A DNA stretch of 64,000 nucleotides from Candidatus Aenigmatarchaeota archaeon (GTDB taxonomy: Archaea > Aenigmatarchaeota > Aenigmatarchaeia > GW2011-AR5). Positions 9,901 through 59,742 of the stretch are shown here, piece by piece. The position numbers were made by a program, and so were the translations under genes. The number at the start of each line of letters is the position of its first letter. Position 1 is the stretch's first letter. The notes beneath the pieces were generated by a model. That model worked only from the letters and a program-made list of their open reading frames with translations. It was not told the DNA's origin and searched no databases. The stretch lies in contig JACQID010000008.1 of NCBI GenBank assembly GCA_016198685.1, positions 32,001-96,000 of the forward strand, read 5' to 3'.

Positions 9901-9985
9901 GGCGATTCTTCTCAAAAAACTCACTTATTGATATCTCTTTCTGCATCGCTGCCATTTCTTGTGCTGTCTTTCCCATGATCATCAC
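6947..9985 (-). CDS. top6B: DNA topoisomerase VI subunit B, intein-containing (probable start at 9976)
   Basis: EAVDNSLDA, DNGPGI, GSKFH...SRGQQGIG GHKL motifs; RFANRVPL; interrupted by intein. Confidence 0.97.
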   Translation of the reverse strand: MMIMGKTAQEMAAMQKEISISEFFEKNRHLLGFDNPTKALLMAVKEAVDNSLDACEESEILPDLAVKMKDIGEDKFLVTVQDNGPGIVREQVPRIFGKLLYGSKFHRLRQSLTHDEPVMACINGKVEILPIGELVDRYIGDAELRDVSSLNIKVPSFDWKGYKYAFRKVSHVIRHRRENEILKIKLAGNREIKVTGCHSLFSAQGAGLKEVEARNLRIGDFIAAPRAISPPEEIDEINILDYIQPGDIDANWFYVYGIEQSIFEELFKKSLTVHNKTDKSRRYYRIGGIDILDDSWKQYTSKGFMPLHLALRLVPTSMLKDCILQSYYHGKPTRIPVALKLERFFMRFLGLFVAEGHVDKRQIGLTFGKHEDSLIEETIGFARRMGLSFTVEPRERSIRVKIFGNVMSLLLEKLCGKGAHNKRIPEFIFRTSRENRQHFIDALYQGDGHKVRKRNCLMFSTVSARLCNELMYLWAMQGIAACRTRRTGKGFGRNPYTAHVVSVYGTDINSSYVFKTTNTTRMRSIYHNSAALLTEQGTDIVMLPVTAIEVLNEGYEFVYDISVPECENFIGGLGGISCHNSRGQQGIGISAVALYSQLTTGTPTKIWTRTEGDKKTTYVELNIDTMKNEPKVVKEDYLDESPLKEHGTIVSIEMSGRYRKTQGVDDYLKQTSIANPFAKITYTAPDGVKSIFPRSVNELPKAPKEMKPHPYGIEFGILQRMLVNTKSRNVSTFIANDFSSTGAQSAKEICNMAKIDAQAAPASLDRTQIEKLLKAMQEAKLQRPPLDCLSPIGGKELEKSLKKEFPGAEFIVAVQREPTVYRGNPFEIEVGIAYGGEMKADEQIQIMRFANRVPLLYQAGAGATMEAIKEIEWKRYGLQQSGSNVPVGPMVLVVHMASSWVPFVSESKEAIAPYPDIVKEMKLAIQDAGRQLSRYISGKRKEGEQKRRLQIFERYSVEVATALHILTGKEEKSILAKLKGIIENRNKLKEATEKAGDALAEEPETPKQEEGE
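8246..9655 (-). mobile_element. Intein with LAGLIDADG homing endonuclease (470 aa) in Top6B
   Basis: Splits GSKFHRLRQ|SRGQQGIG; begins SLTHDEPV, ends VYDISVPECENFIGGLGGISCHN with +1 Ser; block B IKVTGCHSLF; LAGLIDADG-like RFLGLFVAEGH and HFIDALYQGDG. Confidence 0.95.
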
Positions 9986-19892: not shown

Positions 19893-20029
19893 GATATAAT
19901 CTAGGCAATATTTAAAAAAGTGTACTTTAATGCTCCAAAGCGGCAGGAAGCGCAGAAAACGGCCTTTCAGTGGGCCAAACGCCGCTCTGTTTGCATGGAT
20001 TTAAGTTTTGCGAATTAAGTAGCAGTCAG

Positions 20030-20144
20030 GGGCCGGTAGCTCAGTCGGTAGAGCATCAAAGTGATGTGCACGTCTTATATGACGGCTGAGTATTATGCCA
20101 TCTAGGCAAACTGAAGGTCGGGAGTTCGATTCTCCCCCGGCCCA
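20030..20144 (+). tRNA. tRNA-Ile(TAT) with two introns (29/30, 13 nt, 20059-20071; 37/38, 29 nt, 20080-20108)
   Basis: Spliced product GGGCCGG TA GCTC AGTCGGTA GAGC A TCAGT CT TAT AA ACTGA AGGTC GGGAG TTCGATT CTCCC CCGGCCC A (73 nt); central helices GCAU/GUGC and CUUA/UAGG. Confidence 0.88.
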
Positions 20145-20448
20145 TTTCTTTCCTATTCATGTTTTCATCACGGATGCTAATTTTGATTTTGGTGATATTG
20201 GACGATTGCAATCGGCGTGCTGCCGATAAAAACGTTTTCAGTTGTTCTGATTATATATTGCTCTTTCGTCGGTTTGTAATTAACTGATTGTTCATGTGCG
20301 AGGATAGTTTCAGGCGTGTCCATGTATCATCAAATAAAATTGAATGCATGCGCAAATTCGGTAAGTAAAGTTTATTTTACGATGTCTATGACCGCAACTT
20401 ATATATATGGGCCGTTGTCATAGCATTATTATAAATAATAGGTGAAAA

Positions 20449-22159: not shown

Positions 22160-22257
22160 GGGCTCGTGGTCTAGCGGCTATTTTCCGAAAACGGAAAAAC
22201 GCAAATGACGCAACCTTCACATGGTTGAGGCCGGCGGTTCAAATCCGCCCGGGCCCA
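22160..22257 (+). tRNA. tRNA-Val(CAC) with 25-nt D-loop intron (20a/21; 22180-22204)
   Basis: GGGCTCG acceptor, CAACC TT CAC AT GGTTG arm, T arm GGCGG TTCAAAT CCGCC; intron hairpin TTTTCCG-AAAA-CGGAAAA. Confidence 0.92.
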
Positions 22258-33402: not shown

Positions 33403-36204
33403 TCACGCTTTCTTTATGTGTATCAGCAGTTTTTCCCCTTCAAAATCAACTTCGTCCCCTTCTTCAGTCGAGTAGTTTATTTTCTTCGCGCCTACCTGTC
33501 TTTTCAGCTGATCTTCGAACGCCTTGAGCGCCGATCGGGACACGGAAAGAATTATATGATCTTCGACCTTCATGCCCAAATTCTTGCGCATTTGTTGTAT
33601 CTTTCTCACAACCTCGCGGTAAAGCGCTTCGGCTTTCAGTTCTTCGGTAAGATTAACGTCAAGGCTTACGAATCCCTCTCCTAGCGGCTTCTTTGCGTAT
33701 CCTTCAGCCGTCTTTGTTACGGCCTTGACATTGCTCATGCCTTCTATGACAGGATAGATGTCTTTTGAGATTTCTATATTCTCCAGTGCCAGCGCTGCAA
33801 GCGGCCATCTGAGTTTGATTTTGTTTTCTTGGCGTATGAAGCTTGCCGTTTCCACTATGCCTTTCGCGATTTGCATGTCGAGTTCAAGTTTCTCATCTAT
33901 CAGCTTTTCATCCGCTTCAGGCATGTCCTCATGATGGACGGACTCCTTGGCCGAGCCTAGCGGCTTCAGGACGTCCTGATATGCCTTCTCTGCAATGAAC
34001 GGGCAGACAGGCGCAAGCAATATCGCGCTCTTTCTTGCAACTTCATATAGCGCATAAAATGCCTCTTTCTTGTCGCTGCCTTCATATGCAGGCCATGTCC
34101 TTTCACGGACCAATTTTATGTACCATCTTGAAAAATCGTTAAGCAGGAAATCGTGCAGGGACTCTATCGCCTTGTGCCCTTCGTATGCCGAGAACGCGCG
34201 GTTGTATTCCCTGATTATTGTATTGAGACGCGATATTATCCACCTGTCTTCTGCTTTCTTCAGGGTCACGTGGTTAGCATCCGGCACATATGTCTTGAGG
34301 AAATTAAACGTGTTCTCTATGACTATGAAGGATTTGGCTATCTCATCAACATCAAGCCATTTGAAGTAGAAGTCATCCCAAGGCGGTGAATGGAGAAGGT
34401 AATAGCGCAGAACGTCCCTGCCGTGCTTTTTGACAACGTCAAACGGATCAACAACATTTCCCTTGCTTTTCGACATCTTTATCCCGTGCGCATCAAGAAC
34501 GAAACCGTGGAAAAGTATGTTGTTGAACGGTCTTTGGTTAAATGTGATTACTGACGTAATGAGCTGCGAGTTCCACCATCCGCGTATCTGGTCCGGCCCT
34601 TCGGTCTGGAAGTCGCATGGCCACCAGTTCTTGAATTCTTCCTTGTTTTTCGGATAGCCCAGAGATGCCCATGCTGCAAGCCCAGAATCGAACCATACAT
34701 CCAAGACATCGGGTATCCTTTTCATTTTCTTGCCGCATTTGCAGGGAAGAAGGATTTCATCAACATAGGGCCTGTGCAGGTCTTGTATTTTCACAGGCAG
34801 TTCGTCAGCCGAGCCCACGACCTTTGTTTCGCCGCATTCGCACGTCCATATCGGGAGCGGTATGCCCCAGTAGCGCTGCCTGGAAATGGGCCAATCGCTC
34901 AGGCTTTCCAGCCAGTTGGCGAAGCGCTTCTTGGCCCACGCCGGCTGCCAATTGACCTGCTCATTTTCTTCCATCAATTTCTTCCTTATTTCTGTGACAC
35001 GGAAGAACCATTGTTTCACCGCCATCTCCAAAAGCGGCGAAGAGCATCTCCAACATTTTGGATAGTCGTGAGTATAACTCTCTTCTTTGAGAAGTGCGCC
35101 TTTCTTGCTCAGATCTTCTATTATTGTCTTGTTTGCTTTCTTGACAAAAAGCCCTTTATAGTCGCCTGCCTCCTCGTTGTATGTTCCATCCATATTTACA
35201 GGAGATATTATAGGCAAGCCCGCCTCTTTTCCCGCCTTGTAGTCCTCTTCTCCGTGGCCAGGTGCCGTGTGAACAAGGCCGGTTCCATCTTCCATGGTGA
35301 CGTAATGCGATGAAAGTATAACCCTTCCCTGTATTTTCTGCTGGGCCGTGACTTTATCTTTTAACGGATGCTCGTACTGCACGCCTTCAAGTTTCTTGCC
35401 TTTGAACGTTTCCAGTATCTTGAAGTCGGCTATGCCGGCCTTTTCCATGACCTTGCTTACCAGAGGCTTCGCTATTATGAGAATATCCTTGCCAGCCTGT
35501 ACGCGGGCGTATTCTTCTTCAGGATGAACCATCACGCCTGCATTGGCCGGCAACGTCCATGGTGTTGTAGTCCATATGACCAGATATTCGGCCTTGCCAT
35601 TTACTTTGAATTTCACGTAGACTGAAGGGTCGGTCGCCTTCATGTATTCTATTTCATTATAGGCAACTGCCGTCTGGCAGTGCGGGCAGACGTGGACGGG
35701 ATAGAATCCCTGATAAAGCAGTCCCTTTTCAAAGCCGGTCTTGAAAGTTGCCCAGCCTCCTTCTATGTACTCTTTATCCAGAGTCAGGTAGGGCTTTGAA
35801 AAATCCATCCATACTCCAAGGTCAATAAATTGTGAATTCATTACGCCAATGTATTTTGTTGCGAACTCGCGGCACTTCTTGATGAATGTCTCAACGCCCA
35901 ATTTCTCTATATCCGGTTTTGAGGTCAAGCCAAGCTCTTTCTCTACTTTGTTTTCTATGGGCATTCCATGCGTGTCGTAGCCTGGCTGGTCGCGGACATT
36001 GAAGCCGCGCATGCGAAAGTAGCGTATGTAAGCGTCCTTAAGGACCTTGTTCCATGCCGTGCCCATGTGTATCGCGCCTGTGGCATAGGGAGGCCCGTCA
36101 AGAAAATAGAATTTCTTGCCTTTGCTTCGCAAAGCCTTGGCCTTCTGATAGCTAGCGTTCTTGTTCCAGAACTCCTGTATTTCCTGTTCTTTCTGCGGGT
36201 TCAT
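33403..36204 (-). CDS. ileS: Isoleucyl-tRNA synthetase
   Basis: FLDGPPYATG, HMGT (HIGH), WTTTPWTLP, DWPISRQRYWG, GPDQIRGW, KMSKS; start MNPQK with GTGA SD. Confidence 0.97.
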   Translation of the reverse strand: MNPQKEQEIQEFWNKNASYQKAKALRSKGKKFYFLDGPPYATGAIHMGTAWNKVLKDAYIRYFRMRGFNVRDQPGYDTHGMPIENKVEKELGLTSKPDIEKLGVETFIKKCREFATKYIGVMNSQFIDLGVWMDFSKPYLTLDKEYIEGGWATFKTGFEKGLLYQGFYPVHVCPHCQTAVAYNEIEYMKATDPSVYVKFKVNGKAEYLVIWTTTPWTLPANAGVMVHPEEEYARVQAGKDILIIAKPLVSKVMEKAGIADFKILETFKGKKLEGVQYEHPLKDKVTAQQKIQGRVILSSHYVTMEDGTGLVHTAPGHGEEDYKAGKEAGLPIISPVNMDGTYNEEAGDYKGLFVKKANKTIIEDLSKKGALLKEESYTHDYPKCWRCSSPLLEMAVKQWFFRVTEIRKKLMEENEQVNWQPAWAKKRFANWLESLSDWPISRQRYWGIPLPIWTCECGETKVVGSADELPVKIQDLHRPYVDEILLPCKCGKKMKRIPDVLDVWFDSGLAAWASLGYPKNKEEFKNWWPCDFQTEGPDQIRGWWNSQLITSVITFNQRPFNNILFHGFVLDAHGIKMSKSKGNVVDPFDVVKKHGRDVLRYYLLHSPPWDDFYFKWLDVDEIAKSFIVIENTFNFLKTYVPDANHVTLKKAEDRWIISRLNTIIREYNRAFSAYEGHKAIESLHDFLLNDFSRWYIKLVRERTWPAYEGSDKKEAFYALYEVARKSAILLAPVCPFIAEKAYQDVLKPLGSAKESVHHEDMPEADEKLIDEKLELDMQIAKGIVETASFIRQENKIKLRWPLAALALENIEISKDIYPVIEGMSNVKAVTKTAEGYAKKPLGEGFVSLDVNLTEELKAEALYREVVRKIQQMRKNLGMKVEDHIILSVSRSALKAFEDQLKRQVGAKKINYSTEEGDEVDFEGEKLLIHIKKA

Positions 36205-36255
36205 CTCTGTCACTATTAGCTTATATGGAAAATTTAAAAGCAAAAATCATCTTCA

Positions 36256-37999: not shown

Positions 38000-38094
38000 G
38001 GCTGTGGTGGTGCAGTGGCAGCATTGGAGCCTGTGGAAAGCGCTTTGGCGCTTACGGAAAGCTCCCGACCCGAGTTCGAATCTCGGCCACGGCC
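38000..38094 (+). tRNA. tRNA-His(GTG) with genomic G-1 and canonical 23-nt intron (38037-38059)
   Basis: GGAGC CT GTG G^A GCTCC; central helix CUGU/ACGG; intron stem AAGCGC/GCGCTT; discriminator C. Confidence 0.95.
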
Positions 38095-50340: not shown

Positions 50341-50476
50341 AGAACTGAAATAAATGCAAAGATTATAAAACCTATCGGTCCTGAAAAGCTTTCTGAATCG
50401 GAAAGAAGCTTTTATTAAACTACGTAAATCAGGCTTTCATTACAGTATTAAACGTTGAATGCTATATCTTTTCTGT

Positions 50477-50608
50477 GCCGGCGTCGCATAACCTGGCAAC
50501 TCCGCGCTTTTTGAAAATTAAGCATGGCATCGGGAAATTGCGCTGGTCTCGAATTAACGGGATAACCAGTGTCCTCTGGACTTGCAGGTTCAAATCCTGC
50601 CGCCGGCG
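50477..50608 (+). tRNA. tRNA-Ser(CGA) with two introns (20/21, 39 nt, 50498-50536; 37/38, 10 nt, 50554-50563)
   Basis: CTGGT CT CGA A^A ACCAG; helices CCUG/CGGG and CUCG/CGGG; long variable arm GTCC-TCT-GGAC. Confidence 0.92.
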
Positions 50609-50764
50609 TCTTATTTTCATAAATCCCTCATTTATATGCATTTAACAGCCCTCCGGTTGCGCATTTTAGCCAAAAATCCCATCTGCCTATAATGGCAAGA
50701 AACGACCGGTTTCCGCCAAATTTACCTAAAATTGGAGCCAGTGTTGCGGATTTGTTGATAGGAT

Positions 50765-51880: not shown

Positions 51881-51993
51881 GCCGGCGTCGCATAACTTGG
51901 CATTGCGCCAGCCTTGAGAGCTGGTGAGTCTCTGACTCTTGCAGGTTCAAATCTGATGCAGTATCTGCTTCAGTGAAAATCCTGCCGCCGGCG
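51881..51993 (+). tRNA. tRNA-Ser(TGA) with 28-nt T-loop intron (59/60; 51952-51979)
   Basis: CCAGC CT TGA GA GCTGG; full BHB GCAGG-UUCA-AA^U...UGAA-AA^U-CCUGC. Confidence 0.94.
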
Positions 51994-53815: not shown

Positions 53816-53970
53816 GCGGGGGTAGCCAAGTGGCCAAAGGCGCAAGTTGAGTTATAAGGGCATTATGCCCGATGAATGCGAAACTCAAGAAACGCTTTGG
53901 GATATCTTGTCCCTTAGAGAAGAGTAATCTTCGGGGTATGGGTTCGCAGGTTCAAATCCTGCCCCCCGCA
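53816..53970 (+). tRNA. tRNA-Leu(CAA) with three introns (30/31, 36 nt, 53847-53882; 37/38, 14 nt, 53890-53903; variable arm, about 21 nt, 53918-53938)
   Basis: Spliced arm CAAGA CT CAA GA TCTTG; helices CGCA/UGCG, CUCA/UGGG, CCUU/GGGG; 84-nt product. Confidence 0.9.
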
Positions 53971-56448: not shown

Positions 56449-59400
56449 ATGCCTATCAAAAATGAAGAGCGGGATAAAATAGTAAAGGATGCTCTGGCTT
56501 CCATGATAGTCGGCATAGCGCCTGCGCAGGTTTATGCCAATATAGTAACTGACATATTGGCGATATACCCAACGATGTCTCATCATGAAGTAAACGAAAT
56601 AGCATATGATATCTCCCAAGAAGTGCGCATCGAATTCCGAGTGAATCAGGGCAAGCTACGTCTCGCGGAAGAGCGTGAAGGCTGGACACAGAGTCAAATA
56701 GCGGGTCAAGGCAGGGTAATCAGAGGGCAGCGGGCAGTGGAGAACGGTCCTGTCGCACCGGCCATACGGGATTATCGTTATGCAAGGCAGGATGTAAAAA
56801 ATGCGGTTGGGGCAAGTACCGACTGGTGGAAGCGGAGGAAGGCGTCCGCTCTTTCTTTTCTTGGTGACGAGTCCGGTGCGGCACAGCAATTACGCGAAGC
56901 CGAGCAATACAGGCGACGTCGGGAGATAGACGACATGATTGACGTGTTGCGTCGGGAGATAGACGACATGAAATCGCAATTCTCCCTTCAGCCCGTTGGT
57001 GGTCGCGACCGCGAAACGTTAAAACATGATATAGACGAACGTCTGGAGAGGATAGAGAAGCTCAACGAGGAAAAGTCGAAATACTACTATACGCCGAGCG
57101 GCGCCATGCGTGCAGGTGCCCGCTCGCTCGGTCGCCCACTCATGGGCAGGGTTGCAAACGCTTCTTCCGGATGGAACCTGAACAGCGAGCAGGCCATGCA
57201 TCCGCTTGCCAGAAGCCGTGTGAACAAGGCCCGGCAGAAGTTGCGCAAAGAAGGAGACGAGATGTTCAAGGAACTTATGGAAGGTGCAGAAAAGGAAATA
57301 AGGCGGGAAGAAGAATCGTTTGAAGCGGCAAAAAAGAAATATGAGAAGGAAAAGGAAGCCGCAGCAAAATTTGTAGTCGGAACGACTGGAAATCATAGGA
57401 GTTTTTTGGATAATCTTGCTGGACATAATGACAATGAAAAATTCGGCGCGTTGCAAGGCGAAGTAAGAGCCAACATGAAGACGTCGGCGGATCGTGTATA
57501 CATAGAAAATCTCAGAGAAGCATTCACCGAGTATCAAGCTGCCAGGAAAAGTTTGGAAGACTTCCGTAAGAGCGCCTTCACACGGGACAGAACTCTTTAT
57601 GGTCTTCATCTGGTAGAAGAGAAGCTAAACAAAATAATCGGGGAACTACTTGAAGAGAACGCCCTCGGGGAAACGGATGCTGCAGGAAATTTCCATGGAA
57701 TAAAAGCGGCGGAGGAGATGCTTCACAGGGAGCGCGATATACTCATGTTCAAATACAGGGCTCGCTACCGCAACAAAGTCATGAGAGGAGTTGCAAATCT
57801 TCGCCTCTTTGCCCGAAACATGGCAATGGGCACCATGACATGGGGGGACGTGTGGCTCACGTTCTGGTACAATATCCGTGATTTCCTGTTCGGTCCGTGG
57901 ATATGGGGTAGCCTTGTTGTCATGCTTGAATGGATGCTCGTGGGCAGCTACATATCGCAGATAGCGCCTAGCGCGCTTTACTTTGTTGCGCCGATAGGAA
58001 TGGGAGGCCTTACGCTGCTTCTTAACATAGAAGGCTCAATGTCAAGGCCATGGGATTGGCTCACGCATTTTGTTTCCGGCATGCTCATAGGTTTCAGTGC
58101 CGTCATAATGGCCGTGGCCGTGATAACGCCGGAAGACATGGCGGGCTGGGACAACAGGGAATGGTTCCAGTTCTGGTTCATATGGGGCGGCGCCACGATG
58201 TTCATAGGCATATTCAGCTTTTACAATACAGGCGGCTTCCTCTTTGTATTCCAGCTCTCGGTCCTGATAATGCTGTTCGGATGGTTTGCCCTCGGACCGT
58301 ATAGAGGGGTGTATGCGGAGATCGTAGATCAGATACGGGCGCCTATCCTATTCGTCTATAATTCCTTCCGTGACGCTTTTACTGACGTATGGCTTCTAGC
58401 GACAAACCCGCAGGAATATTTCGCAAGGCAACAGCTCAAGAATGTCCGTGCGGCACAGGGCGTGAGCCTGCCTGACGGCGTAGAAATAGAAAGAATAGAC
58501 TTGCAGCCGCCAAACCCTGCACTCTCCGAGAAAGGCGGCGTCAAGCAGTCGTTCTCGGCTTCTCTTGAGATAAGAAACAAAGGAAAAGCCGATGCAAGGA
58601 ACGTGGTTGCGTGGGTTGAGTGCGACGCATTCTGCACGACGGCAACCATAGGCAACATAGATTACGTCGGCTGGCTAAAGGACATAAAGAATGCCGATAC
58701 AAGGAATCCGAACACAAAAATATCGCCTGAGTTGATAGCAGCAGCCAAGGCAGTGTCCGACAATGATCCGAAACAAGCTGAAGAATTTCTCAAAGGCTCG
58801 GGTCTCATAGAAGAAACAGTAGATAGCCCGGGGCCTTTTGTCAGGGCCGGAGGGGCCACTCTCAAGGCAGCAGCCGATGTCGCGACCGAAATAATAAAAT
58901 CGCCACAATGGATAGGGGCAAGCATAGATGCCCTTAAGGAAATCCGGGACAAGGGAAGCATGCATGCAAAGTCTCAGGCTGTGGGTTTCAAGGTCCGTGA
59001 TGCCATGCGTCCAAGCGAGGCAGCAGTGCAGACCATCACGAATATCGGCTCGCACGAAATAAGCCCTGACAGCAAGGCATATCTTTTGGTGTCTTCGCTC
59101 AAGGCTCATGTCGAATACGATTACTCGGCATCGTCAACTCTTGCGGTCAAGGTTGCGTCAAACGAGGAATACAACCAGATCCTGCGCGAAGGGCTTCTTG
59201 AAAACGTAGTTGCAAGAGGCAGCCCGACCACCGCGCAAATATCGCTAAGCGTAGGAAGGCAACCTCTGAAAGCAGGGCAGCAATATGATCTTGTCGTATC
59301 TGTAATCAACACGAGGCCCGACGGCCACGTTTATCTTGATTCCACAACGCCGATAAACATATCAATTCCTGCGTCAATGGCTACAAGTTTGTCATGCCTG

Positions 59401-59742
59401 ACTTTGGACGGCGAGTATACACCTGCTACTCCTGATACGAAAGAAGGTGCCTATAAAATATCTTACGCGCCTGGCGCAAACGTAGACATAAAGCCAAGCA
59501 AATTCTCTTCATTATTCGCGTTTACGTGCAAGTTTACAACGCCTGCCACGATAGACGCAGTAAAGACAGGTCTTATAACAGCGAAGCTTGATACATACAG
59601 GTTCAGGACAACAAAAGATATCAATGTCCGCTACTCGCCGCCGGTCGGAGTTTCCGGGCTCTTGGACAAGGGCGTAGTGATACAGGATAGCGTGACAACA
59701 ACACTGCCTTCTGCGTCTTCATCGCCGGTTGTCATCGGTTAG
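56449..59742 (+). CDS. 1097-aa membrane protein: N-terminal coiled coil, about 5-6 TMs, extracellular CARDB-like domain paralogous to downstream lipoproteins
   Basis: Charged helical N-terminal ~460 aa, hydrophobic block, LEIRNKGKADARNV, EYDYSASSTLAV, YRFRTTKDINVR. Confidence 0.85.
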   Translation: MPIKNEERDKIVKDALASMIVGIAPAQVYANIVTDILAIYPTMSHHEVNEIAYDISQEVRIEFRVNQGKLRLAEEREGWTQSQIAGQGRVIRGQRAVENGPVAPAIRDYRYARQDVKNAVGASTDWWKRRKASALSFLGDESGAAQQLREAEQYRRRREIDDMIDVLRREIDDMKSQFSLQPVGGRDRETLKHDIDERLERIEKLNEEKSKYYYTPSGAMRAGARSLGRPLMGRVANASSGWNLNSEQAMHPLARSRVNKARQKLRKEGDEMFKELMEGAEKEIRREEESFEAAKKKYEKEKEAAAKFVVGTTGNHRSFLDNLAGHNDNEKFGALQGEVRANMKTSADRVYIENLREAFTEYQAARKSLEDFRKSAFTRDRTLYGLHLVEEKLNKIIGELLEENALGETDAAGNFHGIKAAEEMLHRERDILMFKYRARYRNKVMRGVANLRLFARNMAMGTMTWGDVWLTFWYNIRDFLFGPWIWGSLVVMLEWMLVGSYISQIAPSALYFVAPIGMGGLTLLLNIEGSMSRPWDWLTHFVSGMLIGFSAVIMAVAVITPEDMAGWDNREWFQFWFIWGGATMFIGIFSFYNTGGFLFVFQLSVLIMLFGWFALGPYRGVYAEIVDQIRAPILFVYNSFRDAFTDVWLLATNPQEYFARQQLKNVRAAQGVSLPDGVEIERIDLQPPNPALSEKGGVKQSFSASLEIRNKGKADARNVVAWVECDAFCTTATIGNIDYVGWLKDIKNADTRNPNTKISPELIAAAKAVSDNDPKQAEEFLKGSGLIEETVDSPGPFVRAGGATLKAAADVATEIIKSPQWIGASIDALKEIRDKGSMHAKSQAVGFKVRDAMRPSEAAVQTITNIGSHEISPDSKAYLLVSSLKAHVEYDYSASSTLAVKVASNEEYNQILREGLLENVVARGSPTTAQISLSVGRQPLKAGQQYDLVVSVINTRPDGHVYLDSTTPINISIPASMATSLSCLTLDGEYTPATPDTKEGAYKISYAPGANVDIKPSKFSSLFAFTCKFTTPATIDAVKTGLITAKLDTYRFRTTKDINVRYSPPVGVSGLLDKGVVIQDSVTTTLPSASSSPVVIG
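56917..56971 (+). repeat. 22-bp direct repeat (33-nt period) within the CDS
   Basis: CGTCGGGAGATAGACGACATGA at 56917-56938 and 56950-56971, encoding RREIDDM twice. Confidence 0.85.

Follow-up and report, generated by a model that had tools for sequence, protein, structure and literature searches.

The window, a stretch of 64,000 nucleotides, contains at positions 20030-20144 of the forward strand a tRNA-Ile gene which is concealed by two short introns. The reading that best explains the data as a whole is very probably correct: the gene encodes a pre-tRNA-Ile(UAU) whose two BHB introns are spliced stepwise and whose product is charged by the isoleucyl-tRNA synthetase (IleRS) and reads AUA codons without TiaS. 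The host genome (G000) is a MAG of 0.93 Mb in 8 contigs with 45% G+C and a completeness of 93.7%, and it belongs to the Aenigmatarchaeota (DPANN). The thermosome encoded by it is most similar to that of MAGs assigned to Candidatus Aenigmatarchaeota.

A tRNA-Ile(UAU) gene with two introns

The Rfam tRNA model RF00005 matched 20030-20144(+) end to end (model positions 1-71) with 53.4 bits and an E-value of 1.2e-8 for the window, and the match jumps over 53 nt of the anticodon region. Together with the unique solution of our own solver (see below) this match defines a complete gene of 115 nt in which the CCA end is not encoded. Exon 1 (20030-20058), which is conserved in the orthologues, provides nt 1-29 of the tRNA with the 5' strand of the acceptor stem, the D-arm, nt 26 and the anticodon-stem nt 27-29. 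It is followed by intron 1, which comprises 13 nt at position 29/30 (20059-20071) and has a relaxed BHB motif. Exon 2 (20072-20079) with the sequence GUCUUAUA corresponds to nt 30-37 and carries the anticodon UAU at 20076-20078. Intron 2 consists of 29 nt at the canonical position 37/38 (20080-20108) and shows an hBHBh' motif with the anticodon stem as outer helix. Exon 3 (20109-20144) contributes nt 38-73, consisting of the 3' strand of the anticodon stem, the variable loop AGGUC, the T-arm, the 3' strand of the acceptor stem and A73. All these elements are located on the forward strand. Removal of both introns results in a tRNA of 73 nt with the anticodon UAU, the pair G3-C70 and A73. The preliminary description had claimed a perfect cloverleaf for this product, and both the solver and the MFE fold, a perfect cloverleaf with -32.5 kcal/mol, bear this out.

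A TATA-box-like sequence, TTTAAGTT, is located at 20000-20007(+), about 25-30 nt upstream of nt 1, and a T-rich tract was read directly 3' of the gene (20145-20153). These two elements are a putative archaeal promoter and terminator, respectively. A SNORD49-like C-box at 20149-20175(-) reached 13.7 bits compared with a gathering score of 37 and was regarded as a chance match.

For the analysis of the splice sites we used the BHB geometry in which a 4-bp helix is followed by a 3-nt bulge and the cut is placed after the second base of this bulge. The central helix of intron 1 is formed by GCAU (20053-20056) and GUGC (20066-20069), and that of intron 2 by CUUA (20074-20077) and UAGG (20103-20106). 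The splice sites of both introns lie in 3-nt bulges, and both central helices are complete (4/4) and in the correct register, as the preliminary description had proposed for the two motifs at 29/30 and 37/38. In the case of intron 1 the outer helix has 3 bp (A21-A23 with U31-U33); since the inner helix has only 1 bp, this motif is a relaxed hBH. Intron 2 has an outer helix of 5 pairs after removal of intron 1 and an interrupted inner helix of 2 pairs, to which one mismatch and three further pairs were added by eye, and its motif is close to a strict hBHBh'. Counted as central, outer and inner pairs, the motif of intron 1 scores 4/3/1 and that of intron 2 scores 4/5/2. Our BHB-plus-cloverleaf solver, which requires U33 and strict 3-nt bulges, returned exactly one solution for 20030-20144, with the anticodon TAT and the top cloverleaf score. 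Because of these two demands the solver failed on the initiator tRNA, which has C33; it was also without a solution for several other tRNAs (Trp, Lys, Pro and some orthologues), and these were read by eye or left unsolved.

The use of other junctions, or of a single intron, would convert the same segment into a different tRNA: Gly(GCC), Ala(GGC/UGC), Val(UAC) or Cys(GCA). ARAGORN in its default mode without introns missed the gene. With introns allowed it called a Gly(gcc) tRNA with a 33-nt intron, which favors such a different product but was rejected as a reading without BHB. All one- and two-deletion products of the segment were also enumerated with the BHB requirement dropped. No single-deletion product in this exhaustive set forms a cloverleaf. 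Two-deletion products with GGC, TGC or TAC do reach top-score cloverleaves once the BHB is disregarded, but in the products with these anticodons, GCA and further ones the central helices amount to at most 3/4 and flanking helices are nearly absent; both central helices at 4/4 together with flanking helices were exclusively found for UAU. The warning in the preliminary description that the gene could be misread as Ala(GGC) or Cys(GCA) was therefore justified, as cloverleaves with GGC, TGC, TAC and GCA exist and none of them has two good BHB motifs. G3-C70 argues in addition against Ala, genes for Gly(GCC), Ala(GGC/UGC/CGC), Val(UAC) and Cys(GCA) are present elsewhere in the genome, and the orthologues conserve only the exons of the UAU product, whereas the segments needed by the alternatives vary or are missing. 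Considering these points a different tRNA is highly improbable.

The orthologues in related genomes conserve the exons in the order GAGCAYCA, intron, GUCUUAUA, intron, AACUGR. The introns themselves differ in sequence and in length (13-63 nt for intron 1, 21-47 nt for intron 2), but they keep the 3' ends GUGY plus 2 nt (intron 1) and UARG plus 2 nt (intron 2), which build the central helices. A comparison of 22 distinct mature sequences from the whole phylum revealed that the loop CUUAUAA, A73, G1-C72 and G2-C71 are invariant and that the anticodon stem covaries, with five pair types at 27-43 and four Watson-Crick types at 29-41. As each of these two pairs joins different exons, their covariation directly supports the proposed splicing of tRNA-Ile(UAU). 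One orthologous two-intron gene, located in a congener (G004, a 70% complete MAG) at L005:1501-1611(-), equivalent to G004:C79:1664-1774, reads GAU in place of UAU. It differs by a single U34-to-G change, which also leaves intron 2 with a weaker BHB of 3/4, and an ordinary Ile(GAU) gene is present in the same genome (G004:C90). This difference may reflect a genuine loss, variation within the population or an error in the consensus.

Six other intron-bearing tRNA genes of the window are likewise missed or mislabelled by ARAGORN (5683-5785(-), 22160-22257(+), 38001-38094(+), 50476-50610(+), 51881-51993(+) and 53816-53970(+)). Their identities are Asn(GUU) and Val(CAC), both with D-loop introns, His(GUG), which was called Pro or Ser, Ser(CGA), Ser(UGA) with an intron in the T-arm and Leu(CAA) with three introns. 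Other features of the window are an intein with a LAGLIDADG homing-endonuclease domain in the gene for topoisomerase VI subunit B at 6947-9985(-) (Pfam Intein_splicing, LAGLIDADG_3 and Hom_end) and an ORF of 1097 aa at 56449-59742(+) without a Pfam family at E<=0.001.

Proposed splicing order and splicing machinery

The BHB of intron 1 recruits G24 and C25 from the 3' strand of the D-stem together with A26-U27 and, since it uses this strand, it cannot coexist with the D-stem. A segment within intron 2, CGGCUGAGU at 20083-20091(+), is complementary to the 5' strand of the D-arm (20039-20047) and pairs with it as a 9-bp helix when the precursor is folded by MFE. This complementarity exceeds that of shuffled introns with a p-value of about 0.01-0.03. 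Across the phylum, the D-arm and the loop intron share a complementarity of at least 7 bp in 18 of 24 genes with a stem intron compared with 1 of 14 without (Fisher p=1e-4, uncorrected for the phylogenetic non-independence of the genomes). The orthologues furthermore show compensatory changes in this helix, from GCUCAG:CUGAGC to GCUUAG:CUAAGC. Pairing of the intron 2 segment with the 5' strand of the D-arm would set free the 3' strand of the D-stem for the BHB of intron 1. The loop intron may thus double as a chaperone, in that its pairing with the D-arm would let the BHB of the other intron, intron 1, form.

Compared with the MFE of the full naked precursor, the forced conformer with the BHB of intron 1, in which the 5' strand of the D-arm is held by intron 2, is less stable by only 3.9 kcal/mol, and the forced conformer with the BHB of intron 2 by 10.8 kcal/mol. 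As both motifs use C32 and U33, they are mutually exclusive. Taken together with the fact that the outer helix of the intron 2 motif is complete only without intron 1, this points to ordered splicing, in which intron 1 is likely removed before intron 2. Excision of intron 1 would allow the 5-bp anticodon stem to form, which would then present the canonical hBHBh' of intron 2. Tocchini-Valentini and coworkers reportedly described in 2009 a stepwise splicing through alternative precursor folds for crenarchaeal multi-intron pre-tRNAs.

The tRNA splicing endonuclease EndA is encoded within the window at 4205-4816(-). It is a protein of 203 aa (PF01974, PF02778, TIGR00324) with one N-terminal and one catalytic domain, is of the alpha type and is the sole copy found. 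A protein search and searches with both Pfam domains yielded no acceptable second EndA subunit in G000; one candidate with 12.7 bits and E=0.1 was rejected. A broadly specific alpha4-type enzyme is one possibility for this EndA; another is a partner subunit that has diverged beyond detection. It would cut inside the 3-nt bulges of both BHB motifs, and the ligase RtcB, encoded outside the window at C7:10223-11527 of G000, would join the exons. Despite the single EndA found, the genome is rich in introns that are non-canonical or have a relaxed BHB, with locations in the D-loop, in the T-arm, at 8/9 and at 29/30.

Decoding of AUA codons

AUA accounts for 59% of the Ile codons in G000 (47 per 1000 codons) and is present in 556 of 556 long ORFs. 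As standard finders miss or mislabel the tRNA-Ile(UAU) gene, an automated annotation would seem to be without a decoder for the most used Ile codon. The spliced 73-nt tRNA, with CCA added, would read AUA through U34-A pairing, and such pairing would make both tRNA-Ile2(CAU) and the agmatidine synthetase TiaS dispensable. The presumed charging enzyme is the IleRS of the window at 33403-36243(-), which matches the NCBIfam model TIGR00392 (ileS) with 937 bits compared with a cut-off of 621; this enzyme would charge the 73-nt product with Ile. The body of the tRNA carries A73, C4-G69, U12-A23, A37 and A38, which are Ile identity elements in E. coli. It is identical at 56 of 73 positions (77%) to the tRNA-Ile(GAU) of the same genome, which is encoded by a separate gene at C6:296817-296919 with a 28-nt intron at 8/9.

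A search for TiaS with a single domain model (Pfam TiaS_FLD, PF08489) in target genomes that are MAGs found no match in G000, in the 61 genomes of the order or in the 301 genomes of the phylum, 98 of them of high quality; the same model was positive in four of four archaeal control genomes. TilS (TIGR02432) was also without a match in G000. The census of this genome comprises 44 tRNA genes, many of which have introns in the D-loop, the T-arm or the stems; tRNA-Asp was not found in it by any method used, and some Leu and Arg tRNAs were not found either. Within this census, taken from a genome that is 93.7% complete, two tRNAs with the anticodon CAU were identified: an elongator-type tRNA-Met at C6:223654-223788 and the initiator tRNA-Met at L111:73-205(-), equivalent to G000:C2:21222-21354, which could be solved only by comparison with relatives. 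A targeted search of G000 for a third CAU arm as a candidate for tRNA-Ile2 revealed none. Thus, the genome has so far yielded neither tiaS nor tRNA-Ile2(CAT), and the claim of the preliminary description that AUA is decoded independently of TiaS holds on every count that could be checked: TiaS in 0 of 301 genomes, no match to TilS, two tRNAs with CAU within the incomplete census, and AUA codons aligned with Ile (see below).

The initiator gene contains three introns (29/30, 37/38 and about 43/44), is labelled 'tRNA-Stop(tta)' by ARAGORN and has the anticodon loop CCCAUAA with C33 in place of the near-universal U33. Both C33 and U33 forms occur among the initiators of relatives, with intron-less examples in L159 (C33) and L150 (U33).

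A tRNA-Ile2(CAU) that has escaped detection and is modified by an enzyme not yet recognised could in principle read AUA, and the UAU gene would then be a relic or a minor species. The incomplete census without tRNA-Asp and the 93.7% completeness of the genome leave room for such a tRNA, and strongly interrupted genes do evade standard finders, as the initiator did. This explanation is nevertheless very unlikely in view of the distribution of TiaS (0 of 301 genomes), the lack of a TilS match in G000 and the conservation of the UAU gene in more than 30 families, with covarying pairs and an unchanging loop. Moreover, with AUA dominating among the Ile codons, a major and conserved tRNA is required to read it. 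The genomic data support tRNA-Ile(UAU) in the predicted role of a dedicated AUA decoder that is independent of TiaS.

It also has to be considered that the tRNA with UAU inserts Met at AUA, or that it reads both AUA and AUG, a change of the code as in many mitochondria. An unmodified U34 is able to wobble to G, and no mechanism that restricts U34 was identified. To the contrary, the thermosome gene adjoining the tRNA, which contains 29 AUA codons, aligns at these codons with Ile (68%), Val (15%) and Met (5%) in 80 homologues, whereas its AUG codons align with Met (70%). The Ile-like body of the tRNA and its 77% identity to tRNA-Ile(GAU) also argue against Met, as does the orthologue in G004, which tolerates a switch to GAU, likewise an Ile anticodon. 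We consider a reassignment to Met or a combined reading of AUA and AUG extremely improbable and retain Ile as the amino acid inserted at AUA by tRNA-Ile(UAU). The gene sharpens the question of how an archaeal U34 avoids AUG. If U34 were unmodified, adaptations of the ribosome or of IleRS would be suspected, as in Mycoplasma mobile (PMC3575796).

Intron conservation and comparison with known systems

Using the strict pattern 'D-arm ... CTTATA' as a signature of the UAU tRNA we obtained matches in 156 of 301 genomes of the phylum; the reversed pattern, used as a control, gave a few scattered matches. The gene thus characterises the Aenigmatarchaeota as a phylum, and the rarity of UAU implied in the preliminary description was overstated. 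A test for contiguity from the D-stem to the T-loop detected an intron-less UAU gene in 4 of the 301 genomes, with at least 156 carrying a UAU gene, whereas tRNA-Ile(GAU) was intron-less in 67 of 151 genomes in the same test, with the reservation that the genomes counted are phylogenetically non-independent. In all 25 UAU genes that were solved (25/25), the anticodon loop is interrupted by an intron or directly followed by one.

Such an asymmetry could mean that the intron in or directly behind the anticodon loop is functionally required in tRNA-Ile(UAU) and not merely inherited, as suggested by analogy with eukaryotes, but we regard this as rather unlikely; shared ancestry could also explain the asymmetry, and a function of the intron in UAU genes is at present a hypothesis only. 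In eukaryotes the intron of the cytoplasmic tRNA-Ile(UAU) at 37/38 pairs with the anticodon and is almost always retained, and in yeast it is needed for the Pus1-dependent formation of pseudouridine at 34/36 and blocks the modification of U34 by Elongator (PMC11408192). By analogy, a helix of anticodon and intron in the archaeal precursor may gate the modification of U34/U36, in that it keeps the Elp3 homologue, encoded in G000 at C6:72581-74077, off U34 or recruits another enzyme. If this were true, intron-gated modification would be what lets UAU read AUA without misreading AUG. The TruA/Pus1-family domain PF01416 was without a match in G000, with 13 of 14 control genomes positive, so that an intron-dependent pseudouridylation by a TruA/Pus1 enzyme is unsupported here. 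The resemblance to eukaryotic tRNA-Ile(UAU), consisting of the UAU anticodon and a near-obligate intron at the anticodon loop, is a lead only; unlike eukaryotes, G000 combines an Elp3 homologue with no detectable TruA/Pus1-family synthase. Nevertheless, the near-obligate introns in UAU genes compared with the frequently intron-less GAU genes offer a handle on intron-dependent modification of the anticodon in archaea.

With two introns in one tRNA the gene resembles the multi-intron tRNA genes of other archaea (Thermoproteales and others), known from the work of Sugahara, Fujishima and Tocchini-Valentini, which contain two to three BHB introns at non-canonical positions with relaxed hBH motifs. 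In contrast to the Thermoproteales type it is found in a DPANN lineage and possesses a covarying helix that joins the D-arm to the loop intron, of which no description was found in the literature searched.

A UAU tRNA in place of tRNA-Ile2(CAU), in organisms without TiaS, has been documented for Nanoarchaeum equitans and Korarchaeum cryptofilum (PMC6000648; bioRxiv 10.1101/614032, the tRNAscan-SE 2.0 preprint), and the genomes of ARMAN-2, -4 and -5 encode tRNA-Ile(UAU) without tRNA-Ile(CAU) and TiaS (Fujishima et al. 2011, PMC3239211). The three precedents which the preliminary description had given from recall are thus found in the literature. For DPANN archaea in general, we found no publication that deals with TiaS or agmatidine. 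The UAU gene of Korarchaeum is interrupted by an intron, in contrast to its intron-less GAU gene (PMC6000648), and the same asymmetry, with a GAU sibling that is often without an intron, extends across the Aenigmatarchaeota. A difference is that Nanoarchaeum and Korarchaeum are single species in which the UAU tRNA was described as a rare 'gain' or as 'tRNA-Ile3', whereas in the present case 156 of 301 genomes carry the signature and AUA is the majority Ile codon.

The closest parallel is provided by ARMAN-2, -4 and -5 (Micrarchaeota/Parvarchaeota), which are also ultrasmall DPANN archaea with an encoded UAU anticodon and lack both tRNA-Ile(CAU) and TiaS. The ARMAN-2 precursor contains a 25-nt intron at 37/38 with a strict hBHBh', which is cleaved in vitro by its EndA (PMC3239211). 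The gene described here differs in its phylum and in the second intron at 29/30, whose relaxed BHB overlaps the D-stem. Its presumed splicing enzyme is one alpha-type EndA of 203 aa and not a three-unit epsilon2 EndA as in ARMAN. Decoding of AUA by a UAU tRNA independently of TiaS is an already known solution and is ordinary for Aenigmatarchaeota. The strategy documented for Nanoarchaeum, Korarchaeum and ARMAN is now extended to this DPANN phylum, in which no TiaS was seen.
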